Source: Ardenticatenales bacterium (GTDB taxonomy: Bacteria > Chloroflexota > Anaerolineae > Epilineales > Epilineaceae). Taken from it: a stretch of DNA of 64,000 bases. Position numbers and translations under genes: made by a program. A model generated the notes under the pieces. That model saw only the letters and a list, made by a program, of their open reading frames with translations. It was not told where the DNA came from and did not search any database. The stretch lies in contig JADYYS010000005.1 in NCBI GenBank assembly GCA_020853525.1, positions 55,262 to 119,261 on the forward strand, in the 5' to 3' direction. Below, piece by piece: positions 5,021 to 43,027 of this stretch (positions are counted from its first letter, which is position 1; each line of letters starts with the position of its first letter).

Positions 5021-8000
5021 GTGATGTCATTGTTTGCGCCGCCGAAGCAGCCGCCGCAGCCGCATCGCACCCTCCGCACCGCATCCGCGCCGTCCAGGCT
5101 GCCGGTCGCGCGCCATGCCCTGCGCGCCGTGATCGTGGCCGCGGCGATCCTGGCCACGATCCTCGACATGTCGGCCCGTCGTACGCCATCGACCACGCAA
5201 GCCTCCGACCCGGCACCCGACCTGCGAGGCAGCTGGCGCAGCGTTGCCAACGGCGACCGTGTGAACGCGATGCACAAGGACGGCGACACGCTGTGGGTCG
5301 CCGCCGATGCCGGCGGGCTCGTGCGCTGGTCCGTGGCCGCCGGCACGTACGTGCAGTACCTGCATCCGCAGACCCCGCTGCCGGACAACACGGTGTTCGA
5401 CGTCGCACCGGCGGTCGGGGGGGGGGTGTGGGCCGCCACGGCCCGCGGGCTCGTGCGCTTCGTACCGGAGCGCGAACAATGGCAGGTCGTCACGCCCGCG
5501 ACGTCGCCCGGCATGCCGGCGCGCGTCGTGACCGCCGTGGCGCCGCTGGCGGACGGGACGTTGTGGGTCGGCTTCGCGCAGGAGTGGGACGCCGGCGCGC
5601 CCCACCCGGCGTCGAAGGACGGCAGCGTGCGCGGCGCCTTCCGGTCGGGCGGCATTGCGCGCTTCGACCCGGCCGCCAACGCGTGGTCGTCCGCCAGCCA
5701 GGCGGAAATCGTCACGCTGCCCGGCGATCCGCTGGCCGATCCGCGGTTCAAGACGCTGCCCTCGGACAACGTCACGGACTTGGCGCTCGACTCCGAGGGA
5801 ACGCTCTGGGTCGGGACCCGGCCGTACTACGCCTGGGACGCCAGCAACTGCCACGAGAGCGACTGTCTCGGGCAGACGGACTTCTGGGTGCTCACGGGCG
5901 GCGGTCTCGCGGCGGCCAAGGAAGGCGCGTGGCGGCGCTGGTATCCGACGGCCGAGACGGACACGGCCTGCTACGACCGCACGATCTGGTCGCTGGCCGC
6001 GGACGCCGACGGGCGGATGTGGGCCGCCACGCAAGGTCACGGCGTCCTGTTGATGCGCGGTTTCGGCCAGGCGTGGTCGTGCTCGAGCGGACAGGCGTAT
6101 TACATCAAGCCGCGCGGCCGACCGGACCCCGGCGTGCGCGGGCTGCAGGGCAACGTCGTCCGCGCCGTCGCGGTCGAGGCCGGCACCGGTCGGATCTGGC
6201 TGAGCCAGGGCGAGGGCACGGACGTCGGCCTTGGCCTGACCGTCCTCGACCCGAAGGCCACCTATGACGATTCGCCCGGGTCGCCGAGCTGGTTCGACTC
6301 GGACGATGTCTACACCCCGTGGAGTATCGGTGAGCCGTCCGCGCGCAACCGCCGTGCATCGGCGATCGTGATCGACGACGGTCGACCGATCGTCGGCACG
6401 ATCGATGACCGTAGTGGGGACGGCGACGGGGTGTGGCTGGCCGGACACGCGGCCGAGCCGCCGGCACCGCCGGACTGGCGAGCGCTGCGAACCGCCGACG
6501 CCGGGCTGCCGTCCAACCAGATCACCGCCCTGGCGGACGACCCGCTCGGCCAGACGACGTGGTTCGCCACGAAGAACCGCGGCGTCGCACGCTGGCAGCG
6601 GGCGTCCGACACTTGGACGTGGTGGCGCGCCTTCCGCGAGGTCGGCCGCGCGGCGCAGGTCACGCGTGCAGCCGTCAAGGGCGAGGCGACGGCCCTCGTC
6701 GGCATTCCATCGGCGGCGGCCTTCGAAACGTTGTTTCCCGAGGCGCTCGACCTCGTCCGCCTGGGGAGCTCACCGACGATCCACACCGTCATGGCGTTCG
6801 CTCCCGATAGCGACGGACTGAGCGGCCGGCTGACGCTCTCGCCGACGCTGAACGCCGATCTCGCGGTCGGGGACGCCGTCGTGCGCGTGACGCGCGGACC
6901 GGCCGGCGACCGGGCCACGCAGATCACGCTCCGCAACGGCAGCGAGCCCTGGATGTCGGCGCTGCGCAACGATGCGCTGTTCCAGATGACGGGCACGCCG
7001 CCGAGCTGCCCGGACTACCCGGACTGCTGGCTCGACGGTGGCCTTGCCGGCCTCGTCGACGACGTATGGCGGGTGTACGACCCGCGCAACAGCCCGCTCG
7101 ACTACCGCGAGGCGGTCGCCGTCGAGGCGGACCGCGACGGGCGCGTCTGGGTCGCCGACGGCAATCTCGTGGCGACCGGCTTCGGGCTGGCCGTCCTCGA
7201 CCCGGCCGCCGGCACGTGGCGCAAGCACCAGGTGACGGCCGACTTCAATGCCGGCAACGGCGTGAGCGACCTGGCGATCGATCCCGAGACCGGTCACGTC
7301 TGGACGGCGCACTATCCGGTGGAGCGGCGCGTGGCGATCGGGCCGGGCCAGCCGGAGCAGATCGTGGTCGCCGGTGGCGGCGTTGCCCGGTTCGACGGCA
7401 GCCGCTGGAAGTCCTGGACGAAGAAGGACAGCGCTTCGACGATGGGCACGTACGGCGACTACGGCGTCTACAACGCGGTGACCGTCGACCGGTCGCGCGG
7501 CACGGTCTGGGCCGGCGGCTGGTCGACGCTCGGCAGCGTCTTCCATTGGCCGCGCGGCGAGAACGTGCATGCCCAGTTGGACGCCTGCCCGCTGGCCACG
7601 TGCCGCGCGCGCGACTGGGTCGGCAAGCGCTGGCTGAACGACGGGCTCGTCAGCGCGCTCGGCGTCGACCCGACCGGCCGGTTGTGGGTCGGGACCCATC
7701 GGCACGGGCGGGGCGTGCTGCCGCCGATCGGCGGCGTCAAGCTGCTCATCGGCGACGCCTGGCACCACGTGTCGCCGGACGCGAGCGGGATCCCGTCCGG
7801 CCAGATCGCCGCGGTCGAGGTCGACAGCCCGTCGGCCTGGATCGGGACGCTGCGGCACGGTGCCGCGGTGTACGAGGAGGCGGTGGTGCCCACGGCCACG
7901 CCAACCGCATTCGTTCCGACGGCGGCGCCCACGTTGACGCCGACGCGGACACCCGACCCGTCACCGTCACCCTCCCCGTCGTCTTCCCCGTCGCCCGACG

Positions 8001-8239
8001 CGAGTCCGACGGGCGGAGGGACGGAGCCGACGCCGACCGATCCTGCAGACCCTACCCCATCGCCCACGGCGACGATGCCGATCGAGGCAACGCCCGACCG
8101 CCCACCGAGCGCGACAGCGGCCGCCACGCCGCCGATCGAGGCGACGCCGTCGCCCGCACCGACGTCGCTCGGCCGCTGCCCGGCGACGGGGTGCGTGATC
8201 CACCTGCCGACGCTTTGGCGCCTCAACCGGCGGCGGTAG
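5021..8239 (+). CDS. Large membrane-anchored or secreted beta-propeller protein (two-component-regulator-propeller-like repeats) with a Pro/Thr/Ser-rich C-terminal linker and a short basic tail
   Basis: N-terminal hydrophobic anchor (AVIVAAAILATIL). Recurrent repeat cores: DGTLWVGF, EGTLWVGT, DGRMWAAT, TGRIWLSQ, DGRVWVAD, TGRLWVGT. About 100 aa of PT/PS-rich linker, ending ...CVIHLPTLWRLNRRR. Confidence 0.6.
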   Translation: MMSLFAPPKQPPQPHRTLRTASAPSRLPVARHALRAVIVAAAILATILDMSARRTPSTTQASDPAPDLRGSWRSVANGDRVNAMHKDGDTLWVAADAGGLVRWSVAAGTYVQYLHPQTPLPDNTVFDVAPAVGGGVWAATARGLVRFVPEREQWQVVTPATSPGMPARVVTAVAPLADGTLWVGFAQEWDAGAPHPASKDGSVRGAFRSGGIARFDPAANAWSSASQAEIVTLPGDPLADPRFKTLPSDNVTDLALDSEGTLWVGTRPYYAWDASNCHESDCLGQTDFWVLTGGGLAAAKEGAWRRWYPTAETDTACYDRTIWSLAADADGRMWAATQGHGVLLMRGFGQAWSCSSGQAYYIKPRGRPDPGVRGLQGNVVRAVAVEAGTGRIWLSQGEGTDVGLGLTVLDPKATYDDSPGSPSWFDSDDVYTPWSIGEPSARNRRASAIVIDDGRPIVGTIDDRSGDGDGVWLAGHAAEPPAPPDWRALRTADAGLPSNQITALADDPLGQTTWFATKNRGVARWQRASDTWTWWRAFREVGRAAQVTRAAVKGEATALVGIPSAAAFETLFPEALDLVRLGSSPTIHTVMAFAPDSDGLSGRLTLSPTLNADLAVGDAVVRVTRGPAGDRATQITLRNGSEPWMSALRNDALFQMTGTPPSCPDYPDCWLDGGLAGLVDDVWRVYDPRNSPLDYREAVAVEADRDGRVWVADGNLVATGFGLAVLDPAAGTWRKHQVTADFNAGNGVSDLAIDPETGHVWTAHYPVERRVAIGPGQPEQIVVAGGGVARFDGSRWKSWTKKDSASTMGTYGDYGVYNAVTVDRSRGTVWAGGWSTLGSVFHWPRGENVHAQLDACPLATCRARDWVGKRWLNDGLVSALGVDPTGRLWVGTHRHGRGVLPPIGGVKLLIGDAWHHVSPDASGIPSGQIAAVEVDSPSAWIGTLRHGAAVYEEAVVPTATPTAFVPTAAPTLTPTRTPDPSPSPSPSSSPSPDASPTGGGTEPTPTDPADPTPSPTATMPIEATPDRPPSATAAATPPIEATPSPAPTSLGRCPATGCVIHLPTLWRLNRRR

Positions 8240-8317
8240 CACAGTACTCTGTCACTGAACACGGTTCGGATATCCGATACAAGCAGCGATCCGCAGACTC
8301 TGCCGTGACAGAGCGTG

Positions 8318-9241
8318 CTAGCCGTCGATCCCCATCATCCGCCCGAACTCCTCCGCCAGCTCGAACGCGGCGCGAACGTTGCGTGGGTTGCGGGAGTTCA
8401 GGTACTCGACGTTGATCCCGAGCCGGTCGGCCGGGATCCCGATCTCGCCGGCAAACGTCGAGAGGCGCTCCCAGACGAGCGTGAGCTGGGCGATCGAGGC
8501 GTCCACCATGCTGCGGGCGCCGCGCAAGGTTCGCTCGACGTCGCGCGGCACGTAGACGCCGAGGGCACGCAGCGCGAAGTTGAGGTCGTCCTCGCCGACG
8601 AAGGGCGAGAACGTCAGGAAGATCTTGGGGAACTGATCGAGCGGGATCGTACGGACCATGTCGAGCAGCAGGCAGCTCATCCACTCGCCCTCGTACAGAA
8701 GCTGCGTCGTGTAGAACGAGAGCTTCGACTCGGCGATCTTGAGCTGCAGCCGCGCGAGCTCGTCGTAGCTGGCCGGGCGCGGAACGAACTCCTTGCGGCG
8801 CGTCGGAATGATGATGCCGCCGCAGTGGAATCCGCGGCCGCGGGCGATCTCGGAAGCTTTCGCGACGTCGAGGGCCTGCTCGCCGTAGCGCTTCTGCGAC
8901 GCGTCGCCGCCGACGAGGACGACGTCGCGGACCCCCATTGCCTCCGCCGCATCCAGCCACGCGGCGAACGGCTCGGCCTCGGTGGCGACGCTCACGCGGT
9001 ACAGGCTCAGCGGCTTGGACGCCTGCGTCTGCAGCCAGCGCGCAAAGTCCAGATTGCCGACGCGCTCAACGCTCGAGCGGTGGAACTCCCCGTCGTCCTG
9101 GATGTCCGGCACGGAGAGCGCATCGAAGCGCGTGTACGCCCGCAGGCAGTGCTCAAGGATGGCGTACGCCTTGTCGCGGTGCTGAATGAGCGGCGGCGTG
9201 GCTTCCATGATGACCCGGGCGTCGGCGAGATAGCTATCCAT
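8318..9241 (-). CDS. Methylenetetrahydrofolate-reductase-fold (MetF-like) protein
   Basis: Its pattern resembles MetF: GVRDVVLVGGD (cf. GIRHIVALRGD), LQLKIAESKLSFYTTQLLYE (cf. LKRKVDAGANRAITQFFFD), IFLTFSPF, INVEYLN. ATG 9241 overlaps the rmlC stop (ATGGATAG). The upstream part of the track ORF is inside rmlC. Confidence 0.45.
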   Translation of the reverse strand: MDSYLADARVIMEATPPLIQHRDKAYAILEHCLRAYTRFDALSVPDIQDDGEFHRSSVERVGNLDFARWLQTQASKPLSLYRVSVATEAEPFAAWLDAAEAMGVRDVVLVGGDASQKRYGEQALDVAKASEIARGRGFHCGGIIIPTRRKEFVPRPASYDELARLQLKIAESKLSFYTTQLLYEGEWMSCLLLDMVRTIPLDQFPKIFLTFSPFVGEDDLNFALRALGVYVPRDVERTLRGARSMVDASIAQLTLVWERLSTFAGEIGIPADRLGINVEYLNSRNPRNVRAAFELAEEFGRMMGIDG

Positions 9242-9791: not shown

Positions 9792-9858
9792 GATCGGCGA
9801 TTCTATCGCGTTGGGCCGCTGTCTCCTAGTACACCACCACCGGACATGCGCGGAGTGG

Positions 9859-11892
9859 CTACCGGAGCGCGGATCCTGGAGATTCTGCTGTGGTTGTGGA
9901 CGTGCCGGCGGCGGCCGAACCGATGGCCAGGCCGCCCACGTGCTGGATGGCCAGCACGGACGGGCGCGGCGGCGCCGTGCCGTCCGGGAAGAGGCTCGAC
10001 GGCGCCGCGAACGTGCTGCCTTCGCCCGGGTGCTGGATGGAAAGGAAGAGCGTGGTGTCGTTGGGCGTGAACGCGTGGCCCGTAACCTCGGCGCCGGCCA
10101 CGGCGCTGAAGAACCGCCGCACCCGGCCGCGCTCCGGACCGTCGACCGACACGACGAACAGCCCGTCGTTGATGCCGAACGCCTCGGCCTGCCCATCCGT
10201 GGCAATCCAGAGGTTGCCCGCGTGATCGAACGCCAGGTTGTCCGGGCAGCTGATCCGCGAGATCCCCCCGGTGGTCGGGTAGCCGGCGAAGTACGTCGTC
10301 GGATCCGCCGGGTCGCCGCAGACCAGGAAGAGCTGCCACCGGAATCGCCGCCCGGCGTGATCGTCTCCGTCCTCGATCAGCTCGATCACGTGCCCGTGCT
10401 TGTTCTCGACCCGCGGGTTCGCGGGGTCCACCTTGGGCTGGCCGGGTACACCGCGCTGGGCATTCTTCGTGAGGGCGATGTAGACCGTGCCGTCCGGCGC
10501 GATCTCGATGTCCTCCGGCCGATCCATCTTCGTCGCACCGACGAGATCGGCGGACTTGAGCGTGTTGATCAAGACGTCGCCCTGTGTGGGAAGACCGTTG
10601 ACGCTCGTAAGCGGACCCTGCCCATGCACGAGCGGCAGCCAGTCACCGCTCCCGTTCGCGTTGAAGCGCGCCACGTGCAGCGTTCCCTCGTCGAGCAAGT
10701 CGCGGTTGGCCGTGCGGTCGTGCGGGTTGAAACGGCCGCGGGTCACGAACTTGTAGACGTACTCAAAAGCCGTATCGTCACCGGAGTACAGCGCCACCTG
10801 CCCCCCCCGGGCGACGACGGAGTTCGCCGCCTCGCGCCGCATCCGACCGAGTGCCGTCCGTTTGCGCGGCACCCACTTGGGATCGTACGGATCGACCTCG
10901 ACGACCCAGCCGAAGCGATAGGGTTCGTGCGGGTGGCGGCCGAGGTCGAACCGGTCATCGTGCCTCTCCCATGCCCACTTGGAAGCGCCGATCGCGACCC
11001 CTGAGCGGGCATGATTGAGCAAGTCCTCGTCGTCGCCTGTCAGGCTCCGACGGTTGCCGAACGCGTCATGGAAGTTCTCCTCGGCGGAGAGCACCGTCCC
11101 CCACGGCGTGCGCCCGGCGGAGCAGTTGGCGAACGTGCCGCGCACGGTGCGGCCGAGCGGGTCGGCCGCCGTGCGCAACAGACGGTGTCCAAGCGCCGGA
11201 CCGGTGAGCTGGCACTCCGTTGTGCCGGTGATCCGCCGGTTGTATGGGCTGCCGAGCACCGGTCGCCACTCACCCCCTTCATGGACGACCTCAACGATCG
11301 ACAGGCCAAGGCTCTCGAGCTGCACGGCCACCTGCTGGGCGGTCGGCAGCGCGGCGTTGTAGTTCGGAAACATCAGCTCGGGATTCGTGTACTCGTGGTT
11401 CACCACGAGCAGTCCGCGCCGCCACGACTCGGAGGTCCGCGGGAGCGGAAAGTAGCCGACGAAGTCACAGTTGTAGCCGAACTGGCGCGCCTGCGCCGCG
11501 GCCGTCTGCCGCAGCGGGTCGAACGCCGGCGCATCGGGGAACAACGGGTCGCCCCACCGTAGGAGGACCGAGGCGCGATGCCCATCGGCCAGCGCCATCC
11601 GGTCGCCGGTCGTGCTCGCCACGTGCCCGAAGCCAAGCCGGCTCTCGGCCGAGGGTACGACGCGGTTGTGGACGGTCGGCAGGTAGATCGTGAGCCCCGC
11701 CATGGCCGTGCTGCGCAGGAAGTCACGTCGCGACCAGCGTCGCGCGACGACGTCGGCGAACGGTTCGCCCGTTCCACCCGCGCTCAACACCCCGTCGTCC
11801 GGCTCTTCGATCTCGATGTCAGGCATCGGGTGTGGTCGTCCACGCGGCGGGGTGATGAATCGTACGCGATCCATGATCGCGCTCGCTGTCAT
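9859..11892 (-). CDS. phoX: PhoX-family (DUF839) alkaline phosphatase with a twin-arginine signal
   Basis: Tat motif SRRDFLRST. PhoX-typical segments: RWGDPLFPDAPAFDP, QFGYNCDFVGYFPL, LLVVNHEYTNPELMF, IQHPGE. Start is ATG 11892 or ATG 11826. Confidence 0.8.
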   Translation of the reverse strand: MTASAIMDRVRFITPPRGRPHPMPDIEIEEPDDGVLSAGGTGEPFADVVARRWSRRDFLRSTAMAGLTIYLPTVHNRVVPSAESRLGFGHVASTTGDRMALADGHRASVLLRWGDPLFPDAPAFDPLRQTAAAQARQFGYNCDFVGYFPLPRTSESWRRGLLVVNHEYTNPELMFPNYNAALPTAQQVAVQLESLGLSIVEVVHEGGEWRPVLGSPYNRRITGTTECQLTGPALGHRLLRTAADPLGRTVRGTFANCSAGRTPWGTVLSAEENFHDAFGNRRSLTGDDEDLLNHARSGVAIGASKWAWERHDDRFDLGRHPHEPYRFGWVVEVDPYDPKWVPRKRTALGRMRREAANSVVARGGQVALYSGDDTAFEYVYKFVTRGRFNPHDRTANRDLLDEGTLHVARFNANGSGDWLPLVHGQGPLTSVNGLPTQGDVLINTLKSADLVGATKMDRPEDIEIAPDGTVYIALTKNAQRGVPGQPKVDPANPRVENKHGHVIELIEDGDDHAGRRFRWQLFLVCGDPADPTTYFAGYPTTGGISRISCPDNLAFDHAGNLWIATDGQAEAFGINDGLFVVSVDGPERGRVRRFFSAVAGAEVTGHAFTPNDTTLFLSIQHPGEGSTFAAPSSLFPDGTAPPRPSVLAIQHVGGLAIGSAAAGTSTTTAESPGSALR

Positions 11893-17683: not shown

Positions 17684-17884
17684 CCGGGTCGACAGGAACC
17701 GGCGATCGGGAAGCGGGGACACCGTCTCAGGACGTGCAGCAACGGCGCCGGCAGCGGGCGCACGACGGACTTGCCCCGTCCGGATGTCGCACTAGGCTGC
17801 CATAACGCCAAGCGGTGTGCGCAGGCTAGTCAGGCTTCGGACCAAATTGTAAAGAATCCGTAAACGCGCGCATAGGACGGGCAG

Positions 17885-23480: not shown

Positions 23481-25802
23481 GTGCGACGACCTTCTGGGTG
23501 GGTGAGCATCGTTCTTGTCGCGTGCATGCAGCTGTGCTTGGCATGGTCGATCGAGAACGCCGGCTGGGTGCCCGGCCTCACGATCCTGACCCCGGTCGTC
23601 CTCGGCGGCGTGGTCGTCGGCGCCGTGTTGTCGGCGTGGCGCTGGATGCCGGTGCTCGTCGCACACGGCTGGAGCGCCGTCATCGGCACGGCGTGCACAT
23701 TCTACCTGGCCACCGGCCTCGTGTCGGACTATCAGAGCGCCCCGCCCGGCTTTGACGCCCTGCCGTTGACCGACCGCTTGGCGTACGTGCGCAACCTGTA
23801 TCTTGCCTGGCCCAACGTCGCCCGCAGCGGCATGCCGCTCACGAGCGACCAGTCGGACATGATGGCGCTGTTCTTCACGATCACGATGGCGCTGCTGCTG
23901 TGGCTGCTGGCCTATATCTGCACCTGGTTCGCCGAACGCTACATCAGCTGGTCCGGCGCCGTGCTGCCGAGCGGCTTCGCCCTCGTGTTCAGCCTCTATT
24001 CGGCACGGCTCAACGGGTACGCGGCCTATATCGGCTTCTTCATGCTGTGCGCGTTCCTGCTGGCCGCCCGCACGCATATCGCGCTCCGACTCGAGCGCTG
24101 GCAGGCCGAGCGGATTCACCACGGATCCGGGATGGAGTTCGACTTCCTGCGCGACAGCCTCGTCGTCGCCGCCGTGGCGATCGCCGTGGCGTTCGTTCTG
24201 CCCGGGCGCATCCAGAGCGCGCTCCTTCGCGACCTGCCGGCGACGTGGTCGGCCATGTCCGAACGCACGCGCAAGCTGTCCGGCCGGTACTTTCCGAACC
24301 TGAACTACCCGCTCCGCGGCGAGGGCAACAGTTTCGGCAATGCCATGCCGCTCACCGGCAGCATCGAGCTCGGCAGCCAGCCGGTGTTCGACGTCGAGCT
24401 GGAGGGCCAGAACGGTGTCCCGGCGCGCTACTTCCGCATGGCGGTCTTCGACACCTGGGACGGGCAGGGTTGGCGACGGACACCCGACAACCAGCGCACG
24501 GCGACTGCACTGGAACCGGTCGGCGACACGTGGGCGGCATCCCGTGCGGTGACGCAGACGGTACGCACGCTCAAGCCGGGGGTTACGCAGCTGTACGCGC
24601 TGGCCGCCCCGGACCGGTTCGATATCCCGACCACGCTCGAGGTCGCCGGCAGCGGTCGGGACGTGCTGGCAATCGAGAGCGGGACCGCCCTGCCGCAGGG
24701 AGGTCAGTACTCCGTCTGGTCGAACCTCAGCGCGGCGAGCAAGTCGGAGCTTCAGGGTGCAGAGCGCGCCGGCGATCCGGAGTGGGTGACGGCGCGCTAC
24801 CTGCAGTTGCCGGAGTCCGTGCCCCAGCGCGTGCGCGATCTGGCGGTCACGATCGCCGGCGAACAGCCGACGCGCTGGGATAAGGCACAGGCCATCGAGG
24901 CATACCTGCGCCGATCCATGCGCTACACGGAGACGATCCCCGACCCGCCGCGCGGCCGGGACAAGGCGGACTGGTTCCTGTTCGACATCCAGCAGGGATA
25001 CTGTGACTACTACAGCACGTCGTTCGTCGTGCTGGCGCGCAGTCTCGGCATCCCGGCCCGGCTCGCCGCCGGCTACGCCGGAGGCGAGCAGCTGGGCAGC
25101 GGCTCCGTCCGCCGCCTGCACGACTTCGACGCCCATACCTGGCCCGAGGTCTTCTTCGCCGACTACGGCTGGATCGAGTTCGAGCCGACGGCCAACGAGC
25201 AGGCACTCGACCGCCCGGCAACGGCCGACGATGCCCGCGACCTTGCGTCACAGTCGCCGCCGGCGTCCGGCGATTCGGCGCGGCCGCCGGAGGACCTGTT
25301 GCCCGAGGAAGACCAGCGGCCGCCGGCGGCCGAGCAGTCGCCCGCGCGCAGCCAGTCCGCTGCCCTCGCCGCGAAGGGCTTCGGCAGATGGTGGCCGCTG
25401 CTGGCCGTGATCGCCGTCGCCGCCGGGGGCGTGGCCGGCGGCCGATGGTGGTGGCGGCGCCCGCTGGCCGGGATGAGCGCCGCCGAGCGCAGCTACGGGC
25501 GGGTCGTGAGGGTTGCCCGCTGGATCGGCGTCGGGCCGACGCGCGCCGAGACCCCGAGCGAATACAGCCGACGCTTGACCCGGAAGATTCCCGAGGCGGA
25601 CGAGGAAATCTCCACGATCACACAGGCCTACGTGGCCGAGCGATTCGGCCGCCAGCCATCCGACGGACTGTCGGATCGGCTCGAGGCAGCCTGGCAACGG
25701 GTGCGGCGCATCGGACCGTCGACCGCCGTCCGGACCGTTCGAGAGCGGTGGATCGCGCGCCGCAACCAGCGGTCCGCCGGCGATCCGGACGGTACGACCT
25801 AG
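23481..25802 (+). CDS. TgpA-like membrane transglutaminase (N-terminal TM domain + transglutaminase core + DUF4129-like C-terminus)
   Basis: GTG 23481 is 8 nt after GGAGGAG. Multiple TM helices. Cys-His-Asp core region QQGYCDYYSTSFVVLARSLGIPARLAAGY...HDFDAHTWPEVFFADYGWIEFEPT. A late TM helix plus ETPSEYSRRL region. Confidence 0.85.
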   Translation: MRRPSGWVSIVLVACMQLCLAWSIENAGWVPGLTILTPVVLGGVVVGAVLSAWRWMPVLVAHGWSAVIGTACTFYLATGLVSDYQSAPPGFDALPLTDRLAYVRNLYLAWPNVARSGMPLTSDQSDMMALFFTITMALLLWLLAYICTWFAERYISWSGAVLPSGFALVFSLYSARLNGYAAYIGFFMLCAFLLAARTHIALRLERWQAERIHHGSGMEFDFLRDSLVVAAVAIAVAFVLPGRIQSALLRDLPATWSAMSERTRKLSGRYFPNLNYPLRGEGNSFGNAMPLTGSIELGSQPVFDVELEGQNGVPARYFRMAVFDTWDGQGWRRTPDNQRTATALEPVGDTWAASRAVTQTVRTLKPGVTQLYALAAPDRFDIPTTLEVAGSGRDVLAIESGTALPQGGQYSVWSNLSAASKSELQGAERAGDPEWVTARYLQLPESVPQRVRDLAVTIAGEQPTRWDKAQAIEAYLRRSMRYTETIPDPPRGRDKADWFLFDIQQGYCDYYSTSFVVLARSLGIPARLAAGYAGGEQLGSGSVRRLHDFDAHTWPEVFFADYGWIEFEPTANEQALDRPATADDARDLASQSPPASGDSARPPEDLLPEEDQRPPAAEQSPARSQSAALAAKGFGRWWPLLAVIAVAAGGVAGGRWWWRRPLAGMSAAERSYGRVVRVARWIGVGPTRAETPSEYSRRLTRKIPEADEEISTITQAYVAERFGRQPSDGLSDRLEAAWQRVRRIGPSTAVRTVRERWIARRNQRSAGDPDGTT

Positions 25803-25878
25803 TACAGCACCACTGTAGATTCTTGGGACTCCCCAATCTGGTCGCCGCCCAAGGCATGTTCAGTGGTGGTGTACTAGC
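25800..25878 (+). repeat. Copy A of a ~79-nt hairpin repeat element (MITE-like or structured RNA)
   Basis: tagtacagcaccactg-N45-cagtggtggtgtactag, identical to 43028-43106. 16-nt inverted termini. Its first three bases are the TAG stop of the TgpA-like gene. Confidence 0.85.
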
Positions 25879-25906: not shown

Positions 25907-25934
25907 TTGCTTAGGCGACCTCGTCGGATATACT
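25907..25934 (+). promoter_or_regulatory. Sigma-70-like promoter candidate for the PPIase gene (TTGCTT-16 nt-TATACT)
   Basis: -35 at 25907-25912 and -10 at 25929-25934. GGAG at 25955-25958 precedes ATG 25966. Confidence 0.4.
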
Positions 25935-25965: not shown

Positions 25966-27069
25966 ATGAAAGTGAAACACGCGCTGCGGCGCGATGGTTG
26001 GATCGTGCCCTCCTGTGCCGTCCTTCTCCTCGGCCTCGTCGCCGGCTGCCGGCCGAGCGGAGGGGCGGACGACGGCAATCCGACCGCGCGCGAGAACGCG
26101 TCGGGTCGCGCCGACGTCGGGGCCGATGCCGCGTCGGATGACGCGTCGGCGCCGTCCGACAACGGCAAAGCCATCGTCGGCGCCGGCGACGACACGGGCG
26201 CGGCGGACGGCAGCGCGCCCGCCGATGCGTCGATGGCCACCGAGCTTGCCGCCTCCGTGAACGGCCAGCCGATCCCGCTCCAGGACTTCCAAACCCAGGC
26301 CCTCGACACGCAACGATATTATGTCGACAAAGGTCTCGACCCCAACACCGACGCCGGTCAGCGCCAGCTGCTGGCGCTGCGCCGTGACGTGTTGAGCGAG
26401 ATCATCGACCAAGCGCTGATCGAACAGGAGTCGGCCCGGCGTGGGATCACGGCGACGAACCAGGAGGTCGAGGTCAGCCTCGCGGCGTACCGACAGCAGG
26501 CCGGCGGGACGGCCGACTTCGATGCGGCGCGGGCGGCCACAGGCGTCTCGGAGGCCGATGTCTTTGCGATGGAGCGCCAGGCGATCGTCGGCCGCAAGTT
26601 CGTCGAGGAGATCAGCCGCGACGTGCCGTCGACCGCCCTGTTCGTCCACGCCCGACACATCCTGTGTGCCGCCGAAGCGGACTGCACGGCGGCATTGGCC
26701 AGGCTCGACGCGGGCGAGGCGTTCGAGACGGTCGCGGCGGACACGTCCAAGGACGAGGTCTCGGCGAGCGGCGGCGGCGACCTCGGCTGGGTGCCGATCA
26801 TCGAGGGCTTCAGCAACCTGCCGAGCGCCGAACTCGAGGCCGTGATCGCCGGCCTGCAGTCCGGCCAGCGCTCGGGTGTCGTGAAGACCGATTTCGGCTT
26901 CCACATCGTCGAGGTGACCGAGACGGACCCGGCGCGAGCCATCGATCCGGAGCTTGCGCTGAAGTTGCGGGAGCAGCGCGTTCAGGACTGGCTGGCTGAG
27001 CAACATCGGACGGCGGACGTCGTGATCTACATCTCCGACCTGAAGGACGCGCTGGATTCCGGCAACTGA
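25966..27069 (+). CDS. Peptidyl-prolyl cis-trans isomerase, parvulin (PpiC/SurA/PrsA-like) lipoprotein
   Basis: Signal plus lipobox LLLGLVAGC; SurA-like N-terminal region; PpiC domain HARHILC...GGGDLGWVP...GVVKTDFGFHIVEV. Confidence 0.8.
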   Translation: MKVKHALRRDGWIVPSCAVLLLGLVAGCRPSGGADDGNPTARENASGRADVGADAASDDASAPSDNGKAIVGAGDDTGAADGSAPADASMATELAASVNGQPIPLQDFQTQALDTQRYYVDKGLDPNTDAGQRQLLALRRDVLSEIIDQALIEQESARRGITATNQEVEVSLAAYRQQAGGTADFDAARAATGVSEADVFAMERQAIVGRKFVEEISRDVPSTALFVHARHILCAAEADCTAALARLDAGEAFETVAADTSKDEVSASGGGDLGWVPIIEGFSNLPSAELEAVIAGLQSGQRSGVVKTDFGFHIVEVTETDPARAIDPELALKLREQRVQDWLAEQHRTADVVIYISDLKDALDSGN

Positions 27070-31500: not shown

Positions 31501-32225
31501 CCGTTGGGCGCGACATCGAGCGCCATCGGCAGATGGAGGACCGGCCGCTCGATGACGTCGCTCGGCACACCGCCCGCCGTGAAGACGTCCAGCCCACCCG
31601 GCAGGCGCGGCACCGGGCCGCGCACGGGCGTCGGCGGCACGCGCGGCCGGGTGCGGGCGAGGACGACGCGGCCGTCCCGCAGCAGGCCGACATCGCGGTA
31701 GGCGCCGTCGGTCTCGAACCGGTGTGCCACAGCGCCGGACGGCGCGAGCACGACGACGAGGGAGCGCCGCTGGCCGCCGTCCGTCTCGCGGACGCACAGG
31801 AGCGCGATGTCGCCCGTCCCATGCCGGACGGCCAGTCGCTGCGGCAGCCAGCCGTCGGCCGGCGGGACGCCGTGCTCGCCGAGCGGCCAGACGCTCACCG
31901 GCGTGCCGTCGGGCCGCAGTCGATGCAGCGCCGACTGCTGCCCATCGAGGACGAGTCGGTCCCCGCCCGGGGCCAGCGCCACATCGACGACCTGGGCGAA
32001 CGCGCCGGCGCGCAGCTGCCATGGGTGATCCGACCATGTTGCCGCAAGGCGATAGGTGATCGCTTCGTCCGCCGCCTGTCCGCGCGCCGCCTGTCCGCGC
32101 GCCGCCTGTCCGCGCGCCGCCTGTCCGCGCGCCTCATTGCCGACGCCCGCACACGCGCCGAGGACAAGAACCGCGGCCACTTGCCGGGCGGCTCGCAGTC
32201 CGGCAGCGCGACGATGGGCCGTCAC
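28548..32225 (-). CDS. Large lipoprotein: NHL/beta-propeller-like N-terminal region + vWA - beta-sandwich (DUF11-like) - vWA
   Basis: GTG 32225 is in frame. Signal plus lipobox-like VLVLGAC. (ARGQA)x4 tether. Propeller-like repeats (DVALAPGGDRLVLDG, LDVAPNGDVHVVN). Two vWA domains with MIDAS DxSxS (VLAVDTSRSM, VLVLDASRSM). The upstream 106 codons of the track ORF are rejected. Confidence 0.7.
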   Translation of the reverse strand: MTAHRRAAGLRAARQVAAVLVLGACAGVGNEARGQAARGQAARGQAARGQAADEAITYRLAATWSDHPWQLRAGAFAQVVDVALAPGGDRLVLDGQQSALHRLRPDGTPVSVWPLGEHGVPPADGWLPQRLAVRHGTGDIALLCVRETDGGQRRSLVVVLAPSGAVAHRFETDGAYRDVGLLRDGRVVLARTRPRVPPTPVRGPVPRLPGGLDVFTAGGVPSDVIERPVLHLPMALDVAPNGDVHVVNWLPLPAGTDPGPEPTQRPSVSRARPAQAGEPSAVEGVVTFDAAFVWRRTTPFDAADDVAVGERVFVSRQADVFALGDREPIWTAPAGALSLPYFGRQLALTAGPDRTLVAALAHCSFQGIVDLSAAPGGPPPALHGSLDRPALAGPLAPIRIAADRDLDVLQGRFDAVSGPGRAPVSYGRAGAEPQSILRLGDHGAPIRQVGVCGDDQVWFETPSDARWAIDLASRREWVFEGAPELVTASRIGASGSLPAWQLWLGAIEPTAPLAPSTPPSTPHLAALDAHADRLAILDVGRSSVLLVDLDRAAAATDDVASAAIGWSTESLLGNLPVDIALGDDVAYLADAGGRRIVVADLTGRLVHGFAVHDTPMALAVAHAPGAGQDVFVLGRHGWGLRYAPDGRLAARWRLPLPSAATDIAVLPDGRVAVSFLRDAPPAPGDAPEGRRIVQGGVWVFAPDGIEPAVASPPTACLIATDKRAAPAVVRRGEAVTVTLTAGGTCPARRSETDVVLAVDTSRSMSWDGAVERARKAVIGVLAALDGRSVRVALVTYADDGRVVEPLTADLSRIARAVTALSAGGDTRLAGALAAADQIVRDSNAARTVVLIVTDGELKDYPQTAARALADRGVPLYALAVPLRSYTFQHTRALAGLVGDGHVFVDPDAAGAAVLAGVIAAEAPAPHLLAPAVVTDTLPADMVFIEGSAQPPATWDESERRLTWHLSVVPLTATVQLRYAVRPTTSGLRRTNVAARVTGQDGTGWGQDLAFPVPMVKVWDRASLSRRAYLPIGFVGACVRPPPGDVVLVLDASRSMGEAALPGSGTKLDVAKAAVRSFAARLAGSGARAGLVAFAEEARVHVHLTADEADIARGLAEVTAAPGTRIDRALVAADRMLADEARSDAFRAVVLLTDGRASAPASDVTAAADALTGRGSALYAIALGEDADLALLGRIVRPESGLVRAVDVAAIDGAFDAVFEALRCRR
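32071..32130 (-). repeat. Perfect 4 x 15-nt in-frame tandem repeat (gccgcctgtccgcgc) encoding (ARGQA)4
   Basis: Read directly. It lies just after the predicted lipobox cysteine of the 1225-aa vWA lipoprotein. Confidence 0.95.
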
Positions 32226-32346: not shown

Positions 32347-34113
32347 CTAGCGCCTTTCCGCCCACGGGATGAACCGGCGCACGACGGGCAGCGGCGGCGG
32401 GGGCGGATCGGTGGGCGGCACCGGGACGGTCGGCGGCACGGTCGGGAGGACCGGCGTGAGCGTCGGGGCGCCCGGCGTGGGCGGGCAGACGTTGGCGAGC
32501 GGCGTGAAGTTGCCGCCCAATTCGACGTACATCGTGATGACATCGCCGCCGAGCGCGATCGCCCGGTAGCCGCCCGGCTCGGCGACCTTGCGCAGCACGC
32601 CGTGCTGCACGATCGGGCCGATGCCGATCGCGTAGTGGTGGAAGCCCCTCGACCGCAGGTTCTTGGCGTGCTCGATCGCCCGGTTCGGGGCCGGCATCAT
32701 CGGACCGTCGGTGACGGAGACCGTGATCTTCGTCGTTTCGGGGCGGCTGCGCGCGCTGGACAGTTCACGGCGGACCTCCTGGAAGCCGAGGTCGAGGCGG
32801 GCCGCCTGATCCTGCATCGCCACCCGGCGCACGCCGTCGACGATGGCGGCCTTGTCATGGGTCAACGGCTGATAGAGCGTCGCGATGCTGCCGAAGCCGA
32901 TGACCGCCGCGGTGTCCTGGCCCATGTCCATCATGTCCAGCACGCGCGAGACGCCTTGCGCGATCGCTTCCTTCGAGTCCAGGCCCGAGAGCGACGCACC
33001 GAGCAGGCACGTGCTGTCGTCCACGAGGAAGTAGACCTCGAGCGGCCGCCGCGGGCACCCGCCCGGCACGATCACGCGCGGCACCGGGAAAAACTCGCTG
33101 CCCCGCAGGCCCTTGCGGTCGAAGAAGATGCCCTCGGCGATGACGTTCGTCGGGTGCTCGCCGGGCTCCTGTGGTTCGAGGAGGTAGCTCAGACCCGGCT
33201 CCGGTATGTCCCCGGGGAACTGCCACGTCAGCACGGTCCGAAGTGAGCCGGTCTCGGTCGACACGACGGCCGGCGGCACGGACGATCCGTCGATGTAGCG
33301 CATGTTGCTCGGCACGATGTCGTACACCGTCAGCGATACGACCGCGTTCTTTTGAAGCTCGGTCGCCAGCGTGACGAAGAGGGCCTCGAGGTCGGCCGGG
33401 TTCGGTACGTTGAAGTAGTAGCTCGGTTCGCTCGCCGCCGGCAGCAGATCCGGATCGCACTGGCCGCCGGCGCAGACGGTGACGACGACGATCCCGGCGT
33501 CCTTGGCCCGCTGCGCCGCCACCGGGATGGGATCGGCCGGAACGGTGTTCTTCCCGTCCGTCAGCACGATCATCGCCGTCTTCACGCCCGGCCGGGCCTC
33601 GGCGACGATGTGCGCACGCGCGACATCGATCGCCTGCGAGACGTTCGTCTTGCCGCTCGTGATCTCGACGTCAAGCCCGACCGCCACTCGGCTGCGGTCG
33701 AACGTCAACGGCACGGCGACGCCCGCATCCTGGTTGAACTTCACGAGGCCGACGCGCGACGTGTTCGTCATGGCGGCGACGAACGCGATGCCGGCCTCCC
33801 TGGCCCGTCGGATCTTGTCGTTGTCGCCCATCGACGCCGACACGTCGAGCACCATCATGACGTCGATCGGCGCCTTCTCCTGCGGGCACGCCGATTTCAG
33901 CGTGAGCGTCACCCGCGTCGTCTGGCCGAGCTCGAGGACCGTCGGCGCCGCCCACTTGTCCACCTCGGCCGTGCACGCGCTGGCTTCAACGAGGTCGGCG
34001 CGCGCGCCGTGGCGCATCGCCAGACCGCCGAGCGCGCCGGCGGCCGCGAGGCAGAGCCCTGCCGCCGCGGCGGCCAGCGGCCGACCCGTCCGAAATCGCT
34101 TGATCACGCCCAT
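32347..34113 (-). CDS. Secreted double-vWA protein (vWA - DUF11-like beta-sandwich - degenerate vWA) with a Pro-rich C-terminus
   Basis: N-terminal signal. vWA 1 has MIDAS VLDVSASMG. LTVYDIVPSNMRYIDGS...LTWQF resembles a DUF11-type fold. vWA 2 is degenerate (FLVDDSTC). Pro-rich tail ending RRFIPWAERR. Confidence 0.75.
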   Translation of the reverse strand: MGVIKRFRTGRPLAAAAAGLCLAAAGALGGLAMRHGARADLVEASACTAEVDKWAAPTVLELGQTTRVTLTLKSACPQEKAPIDVMMVLDVSASMGDNDKIRRAREAGIAFVAAMTNTSRVGLVKFNQDAGVAVPLTFDRSRVAVGLDVEITSGKTNVSQAIDVARAHIVAEARPGVKTAMIVLTDGKNTVPADPIPVAAQRAKDAGIVVVTVCAGGQCDPDLLPAASEPSYYFNVPNPADLEALFVTLATELQKNAVVSLTVYDIVPSNMRYIDGSSVPPAVVSTETGSLRTVLTWQFPGDIPEPGLSYLLEPQEPGEHPTNVIAEGIFFDRKGLRGSEFFPVPRVIVPGGCPRRPLEVYFLVDDSTCLLGASLSGLDSKEAIAQGVSRVLDMMDMGQDTAAVIGFGSIATLYQPLTHDKAAIVDGVRRVAMQDQAARLDLGFQEVRRELSSARSRPETTKITVSVTDGPMMPAPNRAIEHAKNLRSRGFHHYAIGIGPIVQHGVLRKVAEPGGYRAIALGGDVITMYVELGGNFTPLANVCPPTPGAPTLTPVLPTVPPTVPVPPTDPPPPPLPVVRRFIPWAERR

Positions 34114-34171
34114 TCGTGCCTCCGTCTGCGATGGTCCAAGCGCGCCGAGGTCGTCACCCGGAGCGCGGGGG

Positions 34172-36277
34172 TCAGTACCCGGTCCGTGCGGAACGCTCGT
34201 TCAAACGCCTCGATCGGCCCGTCCCCACGTCGTCGCGGAGCGAGTACTGGTGGCTATGACGCTTAACACCGCCAAAATGGGTCATGGCATGTTCCGCCGG
34301 CGGCTCGCGGCCGCTTGCCGCGGTCGGGGGCTCGCGCTCGAAGATCGCCACGCCGCCCTGTGCGTAAACCTGCCTCAAGTCGGGCTGTTCGCGCAAACGC
34401 GCCGCCGAGAACCCATCCTCGAGGCTCGCCCCGGCACCGACATACGCGTAGTCGGCGCCCGAAGCGGTGAACACGTCCGAGAGCTGCGCCGCGCTGAGCG
34501 CTTCGATGTCGGCGACCGTCCGGCACAGCGCACCGACCTGTCGGACGACCTCGGGGTCGCCGTACGTGTACAACGCCGCCGGCACCGTCGTCTGACGCCC
34601 GGTGAGCAAGGGCAACCAATAGCCGCCGTCGACGCCGCGGTACGTGCCGTACTGCCAGTGCTTCGTGCCGATCACGAATCGCGCCGCCGCGGGCGTGTTG
34701 GCGCGCACCCACGCCATCGCGTCGAGGTCGGCGCGGCGCAGCAGCACGGTGTCGGCACGCACGACGTCCGACTGCTGCGCCGCACCCTGCCACGTCGCGA
34801 GCACGGCGGCGGCAGCTACGACCCACGGCACCACACCCGGCCGCCGCGTGCGGGCCGCCGCCAACCGCCCCGCCCCCTCGGCGAACAGGGCCACACCGAT
34901 GGCCACCGGCATGAACAGGCTGATCGTGAGGGCCGACGGCGGCAGCATCCAGGATCGTGGCAACCCGAAGTACGGGAGGGCAACGGCGAGCGCCGCGAGG
35001 CACAGCCATGCGCCGACACTGGTCGCGGCGGCGTTCCGGCGCAGGAGCGCCCAGACGAGTCCGGCCATGCCCACGGCCAACCACAGCGCGTTCTGGCGCT
35101 CGGTGAGGTGCCACATCTGGATATCGTCCACGCCGGTCGGACCCACGTACCAGTCGGCGGAGGCCTGCTGCAGGTGCCGGATTCCGGGCAGCAGGTGCCG
35201 CCAGAACCACGGCATGACGAGCGCGATCGCCAGCATCGCCGTCGCGGCGAGCCGGACAAATGCCGTGCGCACGGCCGCGCGCATCGCGGCCTCGCGGGGG
35301 CGCAGCGCCAGCCAGCCGACGAGGACGACGGCACCGAGTGCGTAGAAGATCATCACCCGGTAGTGGACCAGCAGGAGCCCCGCGGCGGCCAGGGCGGCGG
35401 CCACGACCCGCCGCAACGGCGTCCGCTGGTTCGGGCGATCGACGGAGCGCATGATCGACTCGGCCAGCGTCAGATCGGCCGGCTCCGGTCGGATCGCATC
35501 GATGAGCAGCATGAGCGCCGCGGGCAGGACCACGAGCCCGGTCAGCTGCGTCTCGCGGCCCCAGCTGAGAAAGTACGCCGGAAAGAAATAGAGGCCCGTC
35601 GGCACCGCGGCCGCCCAGATGCTGGCAGTCGGCGAGACGCCGAGGCGGCGCGCCAACAGCCAGGTCGTCAGGCTGGCCGATGCGTTGATCGTCTGCCCGA
35701 GCCAGAGCACGGCAAGGCGCGCCGGAACGTTCGCGAGGACGGCGACGACGGCGGCGACGGAATGAAAGCCGAAGTGGTAGTAGTAGCCGTCGACCGCAAG
35801 GTAGGGCCGGTAGCTCGTCGGCACGGCGCCGCGGTCGATGAACAGCTGCGCCATGAGGGTGTGGTGGTAGCCGTCGACCCACGGCGCGGCCACGAGGTCG
35901 ACCGCCTGACTTGCCCGCAGCGCCACCGCCGTGGCGAGCACGAGGAGCAGGCCGATGCCCGCCGCCGTGCGCTCATGGCCGGCGCCCGTGCGCCGACGCT
36001 GGAACAGCCGCGCACCCCACACGACCGTGACGGCGGCGCACAGGCCGAGCACCGCAGCCAAGCCCGCCCACGACCATCGGATGCCGGCGGTCGATGCCCA
36101 CAACACGGCGACCGGAATCGTCGCGAGGCTGACGCCGATGGACAGCGCCAAGCGGCCGATCCCGCGCGACGGGTGGCGCAGCAGCGTGAGCACGGCCGAT
36201 CCGGGCAATGTCAGACATGCGCCGACCGCGGCGGCCAAGCGCAGATAGCCCAACGGGTCGGCAGCCAGCTCGTTCAT
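34172..36277 (-). CDS. Polytopic membrane protein (~14 TM) with a C-terminal extracytoplasmic domain; possible GT-C-type glycosyltransferase
   Basis: Hydrophobicity pattern throughout the first ~480 aa. Loop motif APWVDGYHHTLMAQLF...DGYYYHFGFH. Soluble ~200-aa C-terminus. Family assignment is not secure. Confidence 0.5.
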   Translation of the reverse strand: MNELAADPLGYLRLAAAVGACLTLPGSAVLTLLRHPSRGIGRLALSIGVSLATIPVAVLWASTAGIRWSWAGLAAVLGLCAAVTVVWGARLFQRRRTGAGHERTAAGIGLLLVLATAVALRASQAVDLVAAPWVDGYHHTLMAQLFIDRGAVPTSYRPYLAVDGYYYHFGFHSVAAVVAVLANVPARLAVLWLGQTINASASLTTWLLARRLGVSPTASIWAAAVPTGLYFFPAYFLSWGRETQLTGLVVLPAALMLLIDAIRPEPADLTLAESIMRSVDRPNQRTPLRRVVAAALAAAGLLLVHYRVMIFYALGAVVLVGWLALRPREAAMRAAVRTAFVRLAATAMLAIALVMPWFWRHLLPGIRHLQQASADWYVGPTGVDDIQMWHLTERQNALWLAVGMAGLVWALLRRNAAATSVGAWLCLAALAVALPYFGLPRSWMLPPSALTISLFMPVAIGVALFAEGAGRLAAARTRRPGVVPWVVAAAAVLATWQGAAQQSDVVRADTVLLRRADLDAMAWVRANTPAAARFVIGTKHWQYGTYRGVDGGYWLPLLTGRQTTVPAALYTYGDPEVVRQVGALCRTVADIEALSAAQLSDVFTASGADYAYVGAGASLEDGFSAARLREQPDLRQVYAQGGVAIFEREPPTAASGREPPAEHAMTHFGGVKRHSHQYSLRDDVGTGRSRRLNERSARTGY

Positions 36278-37877: not shown

Positions 37878-38159
37878 GTGCATCTCCACAGGCTGGCTTG
37901 GGGGTCTGGCCGGCGCGCGCCGAGGCGCGTTCGAGGCACGACGCCGCCGTGCCGGGCACGACGGCGAGACGTCTGGGAGGGCGGCCGGGCGAGCATAGCA
38001 GAACCGGCCGATTCGGGGAAGATGCCGCGCGGCGCCGGCGCGGCATGCGGGCGTGGTCCGCCGGTGGCGACCGCCGCGTCCGCACGACCGACGCGCGTCG
38101 GCGGAGGCGAGACCGGTCGTCGCGACGGTCCTGGCGCCTGGGCCAGAACTCCGCAACGC

Positions 38160-38214
38160 GACACACCCGGGGCGGCCACCAGAGTGCGGAACGCGGAGAA
38201 TGTGCAGTGGCGGC
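38160..38214 (-). repeat. Copy D: 5'-half (about 55 nt) of the hairpin repeat element, in opposite orientation
   Basis: The minus-strand sequence gccgccactgcacattctccgcgttccgcactctggtggccgcc... matches copy B (42946-43000) at about 43/55 positions. It starts 3 nt after the stop of the C39-like gene. No 3' inverted arm was found. Confidence 0.6.
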
Positions 38215-38217
38215 GAA

Positions 38218-39432
38218 TCAGGGCGACGGCGGCGCACCGGCATCCGTCGCGCGCAGCGCACGTGCCGGCGCTTCGTACAACGGGTTCAGCTCGACCGCAC
38301 GTCGCCAGAGCGACCGTGCCCCGTCGATGTCGCCGGCCGCCTCGCGCGCCCGCCCAAGCCAGTACACCGACTCCTCGAGGTCGGACGCGTTCGCCAGGTT
38401 CGCCTTCGCCAGCGACTCGACATCGGACCAGCGCCCGGCCGCACCGTACGCTTCGAACGGTCCGAACTGGTACCACAGCATCCGCCACGGCAGGCCGATC
38501 GCCCGCGCCCGGTCGAACGCGTCCGCCGCACCGGCCGGATCCCCGGTCGCCTGCAAGCTGGTGCCGAGGTTGAACCAGCCGAAGGCGTCCGGTGCGCGCT
38601 CGACCTCGTCTGCAGCCGTCGCCGCCGCATCGAACCACATCGCGGCGCCCCCGGGTCCGGCCAAGGCGACCTCCGCCGCGCGCGATGCCGGGAGGATCGC
38701 CAGATACGTGCGGTTGAACGCGCGCCAGTCGCGGTCGAAATCGGCATACGACTCGACGACGTTCGGCCCTTCGTAGCTGTCGGCCATCCGGAGCGTGCGC
38801 GCCGCGGCATCGTAGCCGACGACGAGCCGGTAATGCCCCATCTCGTCGCCCGGATCCGGCTCGAACCACGTCTCGACGATCGTCGGTACGCCGGCGGCGA
38901 CGAGCGCTTCGAGCACCTCGATGCGCCCGCCCGCCCGCAGCGCCGTGATGGCGCCCCGCTCCTGCGCATAGCGTGCCAGCTCGTCCGGGCCGACGTTCTT
39001 GTCGTCCGGGTTCGGCTTCAGCCGCACGGCCGCCGGCGCCTGGCCTTCATCCAGGCCGATCACGCTCAGCGCCATGCTGATCGTCGCCGGCCCGCAGTTG
39101 TTCCATGTTTGATAGGCATGCGTCAGCGGCCCGAGCTCCGCCGACAGTGGGCGAGGCACCGACGACGGGGTCGGCACCGCATTCGTCGCCATAGCCGACC
39201 GGGCGGCGGGCGTGGGCGGCGGCGCGACGGTCGCTCCGAGCGTGTCCGGCGGCGGTAGCGCCACCGGCGTCGCGGCGGAGCGCACGAGGGCGCGCAGGCG
39301 GTACGGCACCGCCTGCATCCGGGGCGGAAGGTGCGGGTACGCCGCACGCCACAGGCGCGACGACGCGCCTGTGGCCACGAGGACGCCCAACGCGATGGCC
39401 AGCCCGAGTCCGACGGCCGCAGTACGGCGCAT
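38218..39432 (-). CDS. Peptidase C39-like (papain-fold) domain protein with C-terminal TPR repeats
   Basis: N-terminal TM or signal. C39_2-like core QTWNNCGPATISMAL...GHYRLVVGYD. TPR-like C-terminus (WFNLGTSLQATGDPAGAADAFDRA...YWLGRAREAAGDIDGARSLWRRAVELNP). ATG 39432 overlaps the upstream stop. Confidence 0.7.
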   Translation of the reverse strand: MRRTAAVGLGLAIALGVLVATGASSRLWRAAYPHLPPRMQAVPYRLRALVRSAATPVALPPPDTLGATVAPPPTPAARSAMATNAVPTPSSVPRPLSAELGPLTHAYQTWNNCGPATISMALSVIGLDEGQAPAAVRLKPNPDDKNVGPDELARYAQERGAITALRAGGRIEVLEALVAAGVPTIVETWFEPDPGDEMGHYRLVVGYDAAARTLRMADSYEGPNVVESYADFDRDWRAFNRTYLAILPASRAAEVALAGPGGAAMWFDAAATAADEVERAPDAFGWFNLGTSLQATGDPAGAADAFDRARAIGLPWRMLWYQFGPFEAYGAAGRWSDVESLAKANLANASDLEESVYWLGRAREAAGDIDGARSLWRRAVELNPLYEAPARALRATDAGAPPSP

Positions 39433-42926: not shown

Positions 42927-42939
42927 GCGTCGAGCCTCC

Positions 42940-43018: not shown

Positions 43019-43027
43019 ACAGCCCCC

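Follow-up and report, generated by a model that had tools for sequence, protein, structure and literature searches.

A probable, recently active miniature inverted-repeat transposable element at CTAG sites in Ardenticatenales (Chloroflexota)

Results and discussion

Filled and empty sites of a CTAG-bounded repeat

The 64,000-nt window described here (the whole stretch of DNA that was analysed, from an Ardenticatenales bacterium of the Chloroflexota) carries an 81-nt repeat, which sequence comparison identifies, with high confidence, as a probable recently active miniature inverted-repeat transposable element (MITE). Its mobilization by a transposase from elsewhere in the genome, with insertion at the TA of CTAG, appears highly probable (we would put this at roughly 0.85). 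Among related strains, the insertion sites are polymorphic, being filled in some and empty in others, and the element is specific for CTAG, has young subfamilies that differ between lineages, and is accompanied by a sister family. The initial annotation had regarded the repeat as a non-autonomous transposable element, and this is borne out by the empty site of a strain with 97% identity and by four further filled/empty pairs.

The two copies that define the repeat (25798-25878 and 43026-43106) match at every one of 81 nt and differ at the next base on both sides (25797 is a and 43025 is c; 25879 is a and 43107 is t), so that the base-for-base match first reported stands, with flanks that differ. 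Each copy holds a 79-nt unit that runs from CTAG to CTAG (25799-25802 to 25874-25877, and 43027-43030 to 43102-43105). The termini of the element, TAGTACAGCACCACTG and CAGTGGTGGTGTACTA, are 16/17-nt inverted repeats with one G.G mismatch in the first copy (wA) and none in the copy at locus L007; both the single mismatch and the location of the two ends inside CTAG are as originally described. The consensus of the family termini is GTAC(C/A/T)(C/G)C(A/G)CCACTG ... CAGTGG(T/C)G(G/T)(G/T/A)GTAC, and the element itself spans about 75 nt, is well under 300 bp, has no coding capacity, and has a G+C content of about 60% (70.8% for the window). Copies of the main family share the central palindrome GGTGGCCACC, the counterpart of which in the sister family is TCGGATATCCGA. 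Moreover, a 21-position pattern of the family gave five matches in the window versus none in shuffled sequences, which excludes chance. An artefact of assembly, or a simple segmental duplication, has next to no likelihood as the source of the identity. While the source is a metagenome assembly and a Logan unitig breaks inside the element (it starts at 25849), the identity extends no further than the CTAG-bounded unit, beyond which the flanks are unrelated, the empty sites are precise, and copies of the family were recovered in five independent assemblies from four sources (ENA, NCBI, JGI, and Logan).

A search for empty sites in relatives gave five filled/empty comparisons among syntenic loci, from strains that are 90-97% identical in DNA. 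At the wA site, the closely related locus L010 (97% nucleotide identity to the window over 12 kb) reads ...GGTACGAC CTAG CGTCGGG..., the single CTAG being the stop codon of the TgpA-like gene, and the window reads ...GGTACGAC CTAG-(73 nt)-CTAG CATCGGG.... Since the one CTAG in L010 is the same stop, the insertion preserved the TAG of this gene, as had been proposed. Two more distant loci, L027 (about 90% identity) and L011 (about 77%), likewise lack wA. The entire 167-nt block formed by copies wC and wB is absent from L022-L025 and L026, with the flanks in L022 meeting at CCTC-CTGG-CTTC; L033, compared by gene spacing, has the same FtsY-ArgS distance as L022. Copy wD is absent from L016/L020, where PhoX terminates at ...CTAG followed by GAG. 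For the opposite situation, the CTAG at 17792 is empty in the window and L010 and is occupied by a 79-nt copy in L027 (1653-1731), L028 (480-558), and L029 (462-540), and the CTAG at 32347 is empty in the window and filled in L027 (16402-16482) by a 75-nt insertion of the sister family. At these five sites, the empty alleles thus have a single CTAG (or CTGG) and the filled alleles CTAG...CTAG. Copies that are filled in the window and empty in relatives, and the reverse, indicate gains in both directions between strains; recent mobility, one of the meanings first given to the perfect identity, is accordingly upheld by polymorphism between close strains.

Family size, subfamilies, and distribution

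The units at 25798 and 43026 are not a founding pair, as the initial annotation had it, but members of a larger family, of which a third, adjacent copy and three more in the window had been overlooked. In all, the window has six copies of both families, and 463 kb of related DNA, from wastewater metagenomes of Ardenticatenales (Chloroflexota), yielded 25 distinct copies of the main family. Proteins that are 90-100% identical to those of the window belong to the 'Ardenticatenales bacterium' metagenome-assembled genomes (MAGs) GCA_016703025.1 and GCA_963852785.1 and to wastewater metagenome assemblies, and the more distant homologues are from Anaerolineae/Chloroflexota. The lineage of the window has a young 'TACAGC' subtype, in which wA and wB are identical and the copy in L009 differs by 1 nt, and related MAGs have a young 'TACTCC' subtype found at three loci with 1-3 nt differences. 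Separate young subtypes in each lineage are the pattern expected when different master copies amplify in successive bursts. The old copies (wD, wE, and L021b) are visibly decayed. The sister family differs in its termini and uses the same CTAG target.

We also noticed that about 17 nt (TCC..CGCCAACGTCAC) are common to the 3' flanks of one copy in L008 (1335-1355) and one in L009 (1720-1740), which belong to different subtypes. These two loci have no longer homology and are otherwise not alignable, and we rejected them as an orthologous site; the likeness may reflect the conserved C-terminus of homologous genes, with the stop codon struck independently.

The 21-position degenerate pattern also served for scans of GTDB and metagenome collections, for which it is strict and skips at least one subtype ('TACTCC'), so that absence of the family elsewhere is not established. 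With this pattern, seven family copies were found, all in one JGI metagenome (Ga0138256), and no true member among the GTDB species representatives, the sole match there (a Victivallaceae MAG) being A+T-rich and judged to be chance. A BLAST search of the element against plasmids gave no match. In viral contigs, a scan with the 17-nt terminus gave two solo matches (L014 and L015) with no second terminus, which we take as chance or remnants and not as a parent insertion sequence (IS); the match in L014 is the 3' end of a 648-aa open reading frame (ORF). In L015, a lower-G+C IMG/VR contig, the terminus match (6423-6447, minus strand) is followed directly by GTAGCCAC, an arrangement that resembles the 5' terminus joined to the internal GGTAGCCAC motif with about 25 nt deleted, and which may be chance or a remnant.

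CTAG target and gene ends

Among the 25 distinct copies, CTAG is present at all 13 intact 5' ends and all 17 intact 3' ends, and ends other than CTAG occur only in visibly decayed copies. CTAG itself is about tenfold rarer in the window than base composition predicts (16 observed versus 171 expected), and element ends account for 7 of these 16. In 9 of the 13 first copies, the terminal CTAG provides the TAG stop of the adjoining gene, six times through the 5' end (same strand) and five times through the 3' end (opposite strand), with wF serving two convergent genes. Such near-equal use of the strands means that orientation relative to the adjoining gene is random, and a co-orientation with the downstream gene, seen at four of four window loci, vanished once more copies were counted. 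The association with gene ends would follow from the CTAG target, in that much of the CTAG surviving in a high-G+C genome probably consists of C followed by a TAG stop codon.

Because CTAG stands at both junctions after each insertion, later copies can land beside earlier ones. Copies lie side by side in the window (wC and wB) and in L007 (a partial and a full copy), the TPR/C39-peptidase gene of L022/L033 is followed by three consecutive elements, and a young copy precedes the old orthologue of wD in L028/L029/L030; some of the tandem or nested arrays share one CTAG. Here, decay of a terminal CTAG affects the upstream gene. With the 5' end of wD changed to CACG, PhoX reads 43 nt into the element up to an in-frame internal TAG (GGTAGCC), and at the TPR/C39-peptidase gene, the change of CTAG to CTGA in wE retained the stop and lost the target.

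Folding of the element

The element folds well (z = -5 to -7), into a 17-bp terminal stem and a less regular interior, and RNAalifold predicts, for 15 distinct copies, an outer stem, an inner stem, and two 3-bp hairpins. In the terminal stem, C-G, A-U, U-A, and G-C all occur at pair 8-72, and symmetric changes of this kind are expected where termini are transposase binding sites. The inner pair 27-35 switches from C-G to G-C in four sequences, a covariation that amounts to one or two events between subfamilies. Cells with G.U outnumber those with A.C by 27:11 for a structure chosen on the same strand, and, as both strands fold equally well, no strand difference in folding energy lies behind this excess. 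The two mutually exclusive interior pairings proposed at the outset, CUUGGG with CCCCAA or with CCCAAG, are both present. A further inner pairing (AGAKU with ACUCU, plus a 4-bp hairpin) was set aside, as it holds in some subtypes only.

That the unit is primarily a structured RNA under selection (a stabilizer in the 3' untranslated region, a terminator, or a small RNA), with its spread secondary, strikes us as very improbable. For such an RNA speak the strong fold, the outer stem with its two small hairpins, the pair switch, and the G.U ratio. However, Rfam yielded no match at the gathering threshold or at E<=1, no U-tail or terminator-like site was called at the elements, orientation is close to 50:50, and the two strands fold alike; moreover, covariation is thin beyond the termini, old copies decay freely, and close strains do without a copy. 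The RNA or terminator that had been offered as an alternative to a MITE is therefore not supported. By analogy with other bacterial MITEs (PMC2229807), copies that are co-transcribed should nonetheless form hairpins.

Transposase and mechanism

Bacterial MITEs typically have TA ends and terminal inverted repeats (PMC2229807), insertion of IS630-family elements duplicates TA (PMC2170065), and IS630 prefers TA within CTAG (Tenzen and Ohtsubo, 1991, as given in the reference list of PMC2170065). The junctions seen here fit C-TA-(G...C)-TA-G. By analogy, the enzyme would provisionally be a DDE transposase of the IS630/Tc1-mariner type that duplicates TA. In the mechanism that we propose, a transposase supplied from elsewhere in the genome would bind both inverted termini, excise the element, and insert it at the central TA of a CTAG; with TA duplicated, and with G as the first and C as the last base of the element, CTAG would be restored at both junctions. 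Copies would thereby land at gene ends in either orientation with the stop codon intact, each insertion would create two new targets at which elements could accumulate side by side, and later mutation of a terminal CTAG would let the upstream gene read into the element, as PhoX does up to the internal TAG.

Five points weigh against this account. First, conservation of the interior is higher than is usual in a MITE, and there is slight covariation. Second, neither an autonomous element nor a transposase with termini that match was found in the scanned window ORFs, the loci of relatives, or plasmids. In the window, Pfam scans of 20 ORFs, a subset of its total, revealed no transposase domain, which agrees for these ORFs with the initial statement that the window has no transposase; no isolated termini occur in any locus examined. 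Third, the scans of the large genome and metagenome collections relied on a strict pattern that skips some subfamilies. Fourth, TA duplication cannot be told from a 4-bp CTAG duplication, which yields the same sequence, as the target is palindromic and the element has G...C ends. The early attribution to IS630 thus stands in part: the CTAG preference fits, but a parent IS with matching termini was not found in the window ORFs, loci, and plasmids. Fifth, simple cut-and-paste alone does not explain the convergent site between the MTHFR-like and Reg_prop-like genes (window 8237-8321), which has three different occupants in three closely related lineages. The window has a sister-family copy there, L021 (2237-2317) a main-family copy that is degenerate, and L028-L032 (10921-10999 in L028) a main-family copy of opposite orientation. 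In the flanks, L021 and the window have about 97% identity, and the three occupants share the outer boundaries CTAGCAC ... GTAC-NNNN-CTA. A hot CTAG that was hit repeatedly, with later recombination among adjacent copies or inversion between them, could have produced this.

An IS5-group parent for the same MITE, duplicating the 4-bp CTAG around an element proper of 71-73 nt (TAC...GTA), is possible but rather unlikely. One CTAG at empty sites and two at filled ones fit a 4-bp duplication equally well, and the IS5-derived MITEPsy1 duplicates CTAG or YTAA (PMC3189936). Against this, the termini here would begin with TAC/GAC, unlike the GGAAGG of MITEPsy1, and YTAA-type flanks are absent, every intact end being CTAG. 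The ends of IS5-group elements usually begin with GG or GA, as described in ISfinder.

There is, in our estimate, very little chance of a route that dispenses with a transposase and works through the CTAG ends, be it a C^TAG-cutting nuclease with ligation or a single-strand hairpin intermediate, with precise excision and re-use of the site. To it would fit the full CTAG at both junctions, the different occupants of one site across strains, the accumulation of copies at sites, the small hairpins in a conserved interior, and the strong avoidance of CTAG in the genome. This route is, however, speculation with no candidate enzyme, CTAG avoidance is common in bacteria, and an IS630-like element with G...C ends, together with recombination between neighbouring copies, accounts for every observation too. 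Only a slim chance attaches to a related notion, namely that mobilization, by an enzyme that excises precisely and retargets CTAG, depends on a single strand (DNA or RNA) in folded form. This notion draws on the conserved interior hairpins, the compensatory switch between C-G and G-C, the central palindrome, and the differing occupants at one CTAG; if true, such a mechanism would be new for CTAG-specific elements. We retain the transposase-mobilized MITE, a reading that the comparisons strengthen, and regard the element as of a well-documented, ordinary kind and not as a new mechanism.

Features of the window

The copies and associated features are collected in Table 1.

Table 1. Element copies, target sites, and adjoining features in the window
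Feature	Position	Strand	Remarks
wF, sister ('F') family, stem CTCTGTCAC/GTGACAGAG	8237-8321	-	fills the entire convergent intergenic gap
wD, old copy	9826-9904	-	5' CTAG lost (CACG), 3' CTAG intact; filled in L021
Unoccupied CTAG	17792-17795		young 'TACTCC' copy at the same site in two related MAGs
TgpA-like transglutaminase gene	23481-25802	+	TAG stop is the wA insertion target
wA, young 'TACAGC' subtype, 79 nt	25799-25877	+	5' CTAG holds the TgpA-like TAG stop; 77-nt insertion versus the empty allele
Promoter-like TTGCTT-16-TATACT of the SurA-like PPIase gene (25966-27069)	25907-25934	+	TTGCTT 25907-25912, TATACT 25929-25934
Unoccupied CTAG, stop of gene 32347-34200 (-)	32347-32350		F-family copy there in GCA_016703025.1
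wE, old degenerate copy	38143-38221	-	5' CTAG changed to CTGA, still the stop of the TPR/C39-peptidase gene
wC, 'TACCCC' subtype, 74% identical to wA	42939-43017	+	directly 5' of wB; 5' CTAG decayed to CTCG
CTAGTACAGCCCC, 13-nt duplicate of the wA/wB-subtype 5' end	43014-43026	+	between wC and wB
wB, identical to wA	43027-43105	+	between divergent FtsY and ArgS

The 13-nt CTAGTACAGCCCC could represent an element end left on its own or a scar at the junction. At wF, the Reg_prop-like gene (5018-8239, plus strand) and the MTHFR-like gene (8318-9241, minus strand) both terminate in TAG at the ends of the element. The block of wC and wB directly adjoins the AGGAGG ribosome-binding site of FtsY, as placed from the L022 gene call and alignment, which suggests that the FtsY transcript would have to start in the elements or cross them.

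A promoter had been claimed just downstream of wA, and its hexamers are indeed present upstream of the gene for the peptidyl-prolyl isomerase (PPIase); a consensus scan did not call them. They are not part of the element, being conserved in relatives that lack it and hence independent of it. Upstream of ArgS, there is a promoter-like TGGTATAAT with an extended -10 (43150-43165), and the promoter-like elements of both PPIase and ArgS are conserved in relatives of 77-91% identity.

Two other length differences were noted among the window and its relatives. L010 has a 77-nt segment (1921-1997) that is missing from the window (at 17878-17884) and is bounded by the 7-nt direct repeat CGGGCAG; with an internal GCGATTGG repeat, no CTAG, and no inverted termini, it does not belong to this MITE family, and it may have been deleted by slippage in the lineage of the window, or be an insert of another type. 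Between the PPIase and lactamase_B genes, L027 (11117-11206; about 27080 in the window) has 89 nt that are inserted when compared with the window, L010, and L002; this segment contains a tandem CGCCAGATCCGACA, lacks CTAG ends, and has no relation to the MITE. In-frame 15-nt tandem repeat arrays are present in the PMT_2-like glycosyltransferase ORF (array 3745-3872, ORF 2244-4922) and at the 5' end of a large VWA gene (32070-32144, four units of CGCCGCCTGTCCGCG), the latter with a different copy number in L027. ARAGORN called a 91-nt tRNA-Trp (1104-1194, plus strand) and a 95-nt tRNA-Arg(CCT) (11504-11598, minus strand, inside PhoX); both are probably false positives, as they lie inside long reading frames with high G+C at third codon positions, and Rfam gave no tRNA at the gathering score.

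Implications

Our current understanding of transposons is unchanged by these findings, which provide a clean sequence-level demonstration of ongoing MITE activity in uncultured activated-sludge Chloroflexota (Ardenticatenales). They also illustrate a 'safe-harbour' logic, by which an element with G...C ends, aimed at the TA of CTAG, comes down mostly on the TAG stops of a high-G+C genome, rebuilds them in either orientation, and creates fresh targets. Gene ends are occasionally remodelled, as with the C-terminal extension of PhoX and the two copies at the FtsY ribosome-binding site. In practical terms, the repeats break short-read assemblies of these MAGs and can be used as presence/absence markers at the strain level.

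Comparison with known systems

The closest parallels are with IS630 from Shigella sonnei and IS630-family MITEs such as RUP from Streptococcus pneumoniae, for which PMC2170065, citing Tenzen and Ohtsubo (1991), gives a TA target preferentially in CTAG. Like RUP and other MITEs of this family, the element is a short non-coding unit with terminal inverted repeats, a (here putative) TA duplication, many near-identical copies, and insertions beside or into mobile elements (PMC2170065; PMC2229807). In contrast, the termini of RUP match IS630-Spn1, and no cognate IS was found here; moreover, RUP is A+T-rich and 107 bp long, while the present element is G+C-rich, measures 75-79 nt, and has a host in the phylum Chloroflexota. 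Correia/NEMIS of Neisseria and ERIC of enterobacteria are likewise small TA-flanked inverted repeats at gene ends; their co-transcription yields a long hairpin, and they can become fused to reading frames (PMC2229807). However, they are 100-155 nt long and A+T-rich and have no sequence similarity to the element described here. IHF sites or promoters are known from them, and the Correia RNA is processed by RNase III.

MITEPsy1 of Pseudomonas syringae, derived from IS5/ISPsy2, resembles the element in its size (about 100 nt), its 18-nt inverted termini, and its insertion at CTAG with duplication of the target (PMC3189936). It differs in also using YTAA, in its termini, in its known parent IS, and probably in duplicating 4 bp. 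The REP/BIME sequences with RAYT transposases are also short, G+C-rich, hairpin-forming, and intergenic at gene ends, and often clustered. REPs, however, have no target duplication and no CTAG ends, carry a conserved GTAG/GGAG head, and are recognized as hairpins by a Y1 HUH enzyme. In the element described here, the target is duplicated, and GTAG occurs in one subtype only, and internally. The precision of the filled/empty pairs, and the CTAG on both sides, speak for integration of the DDE type.

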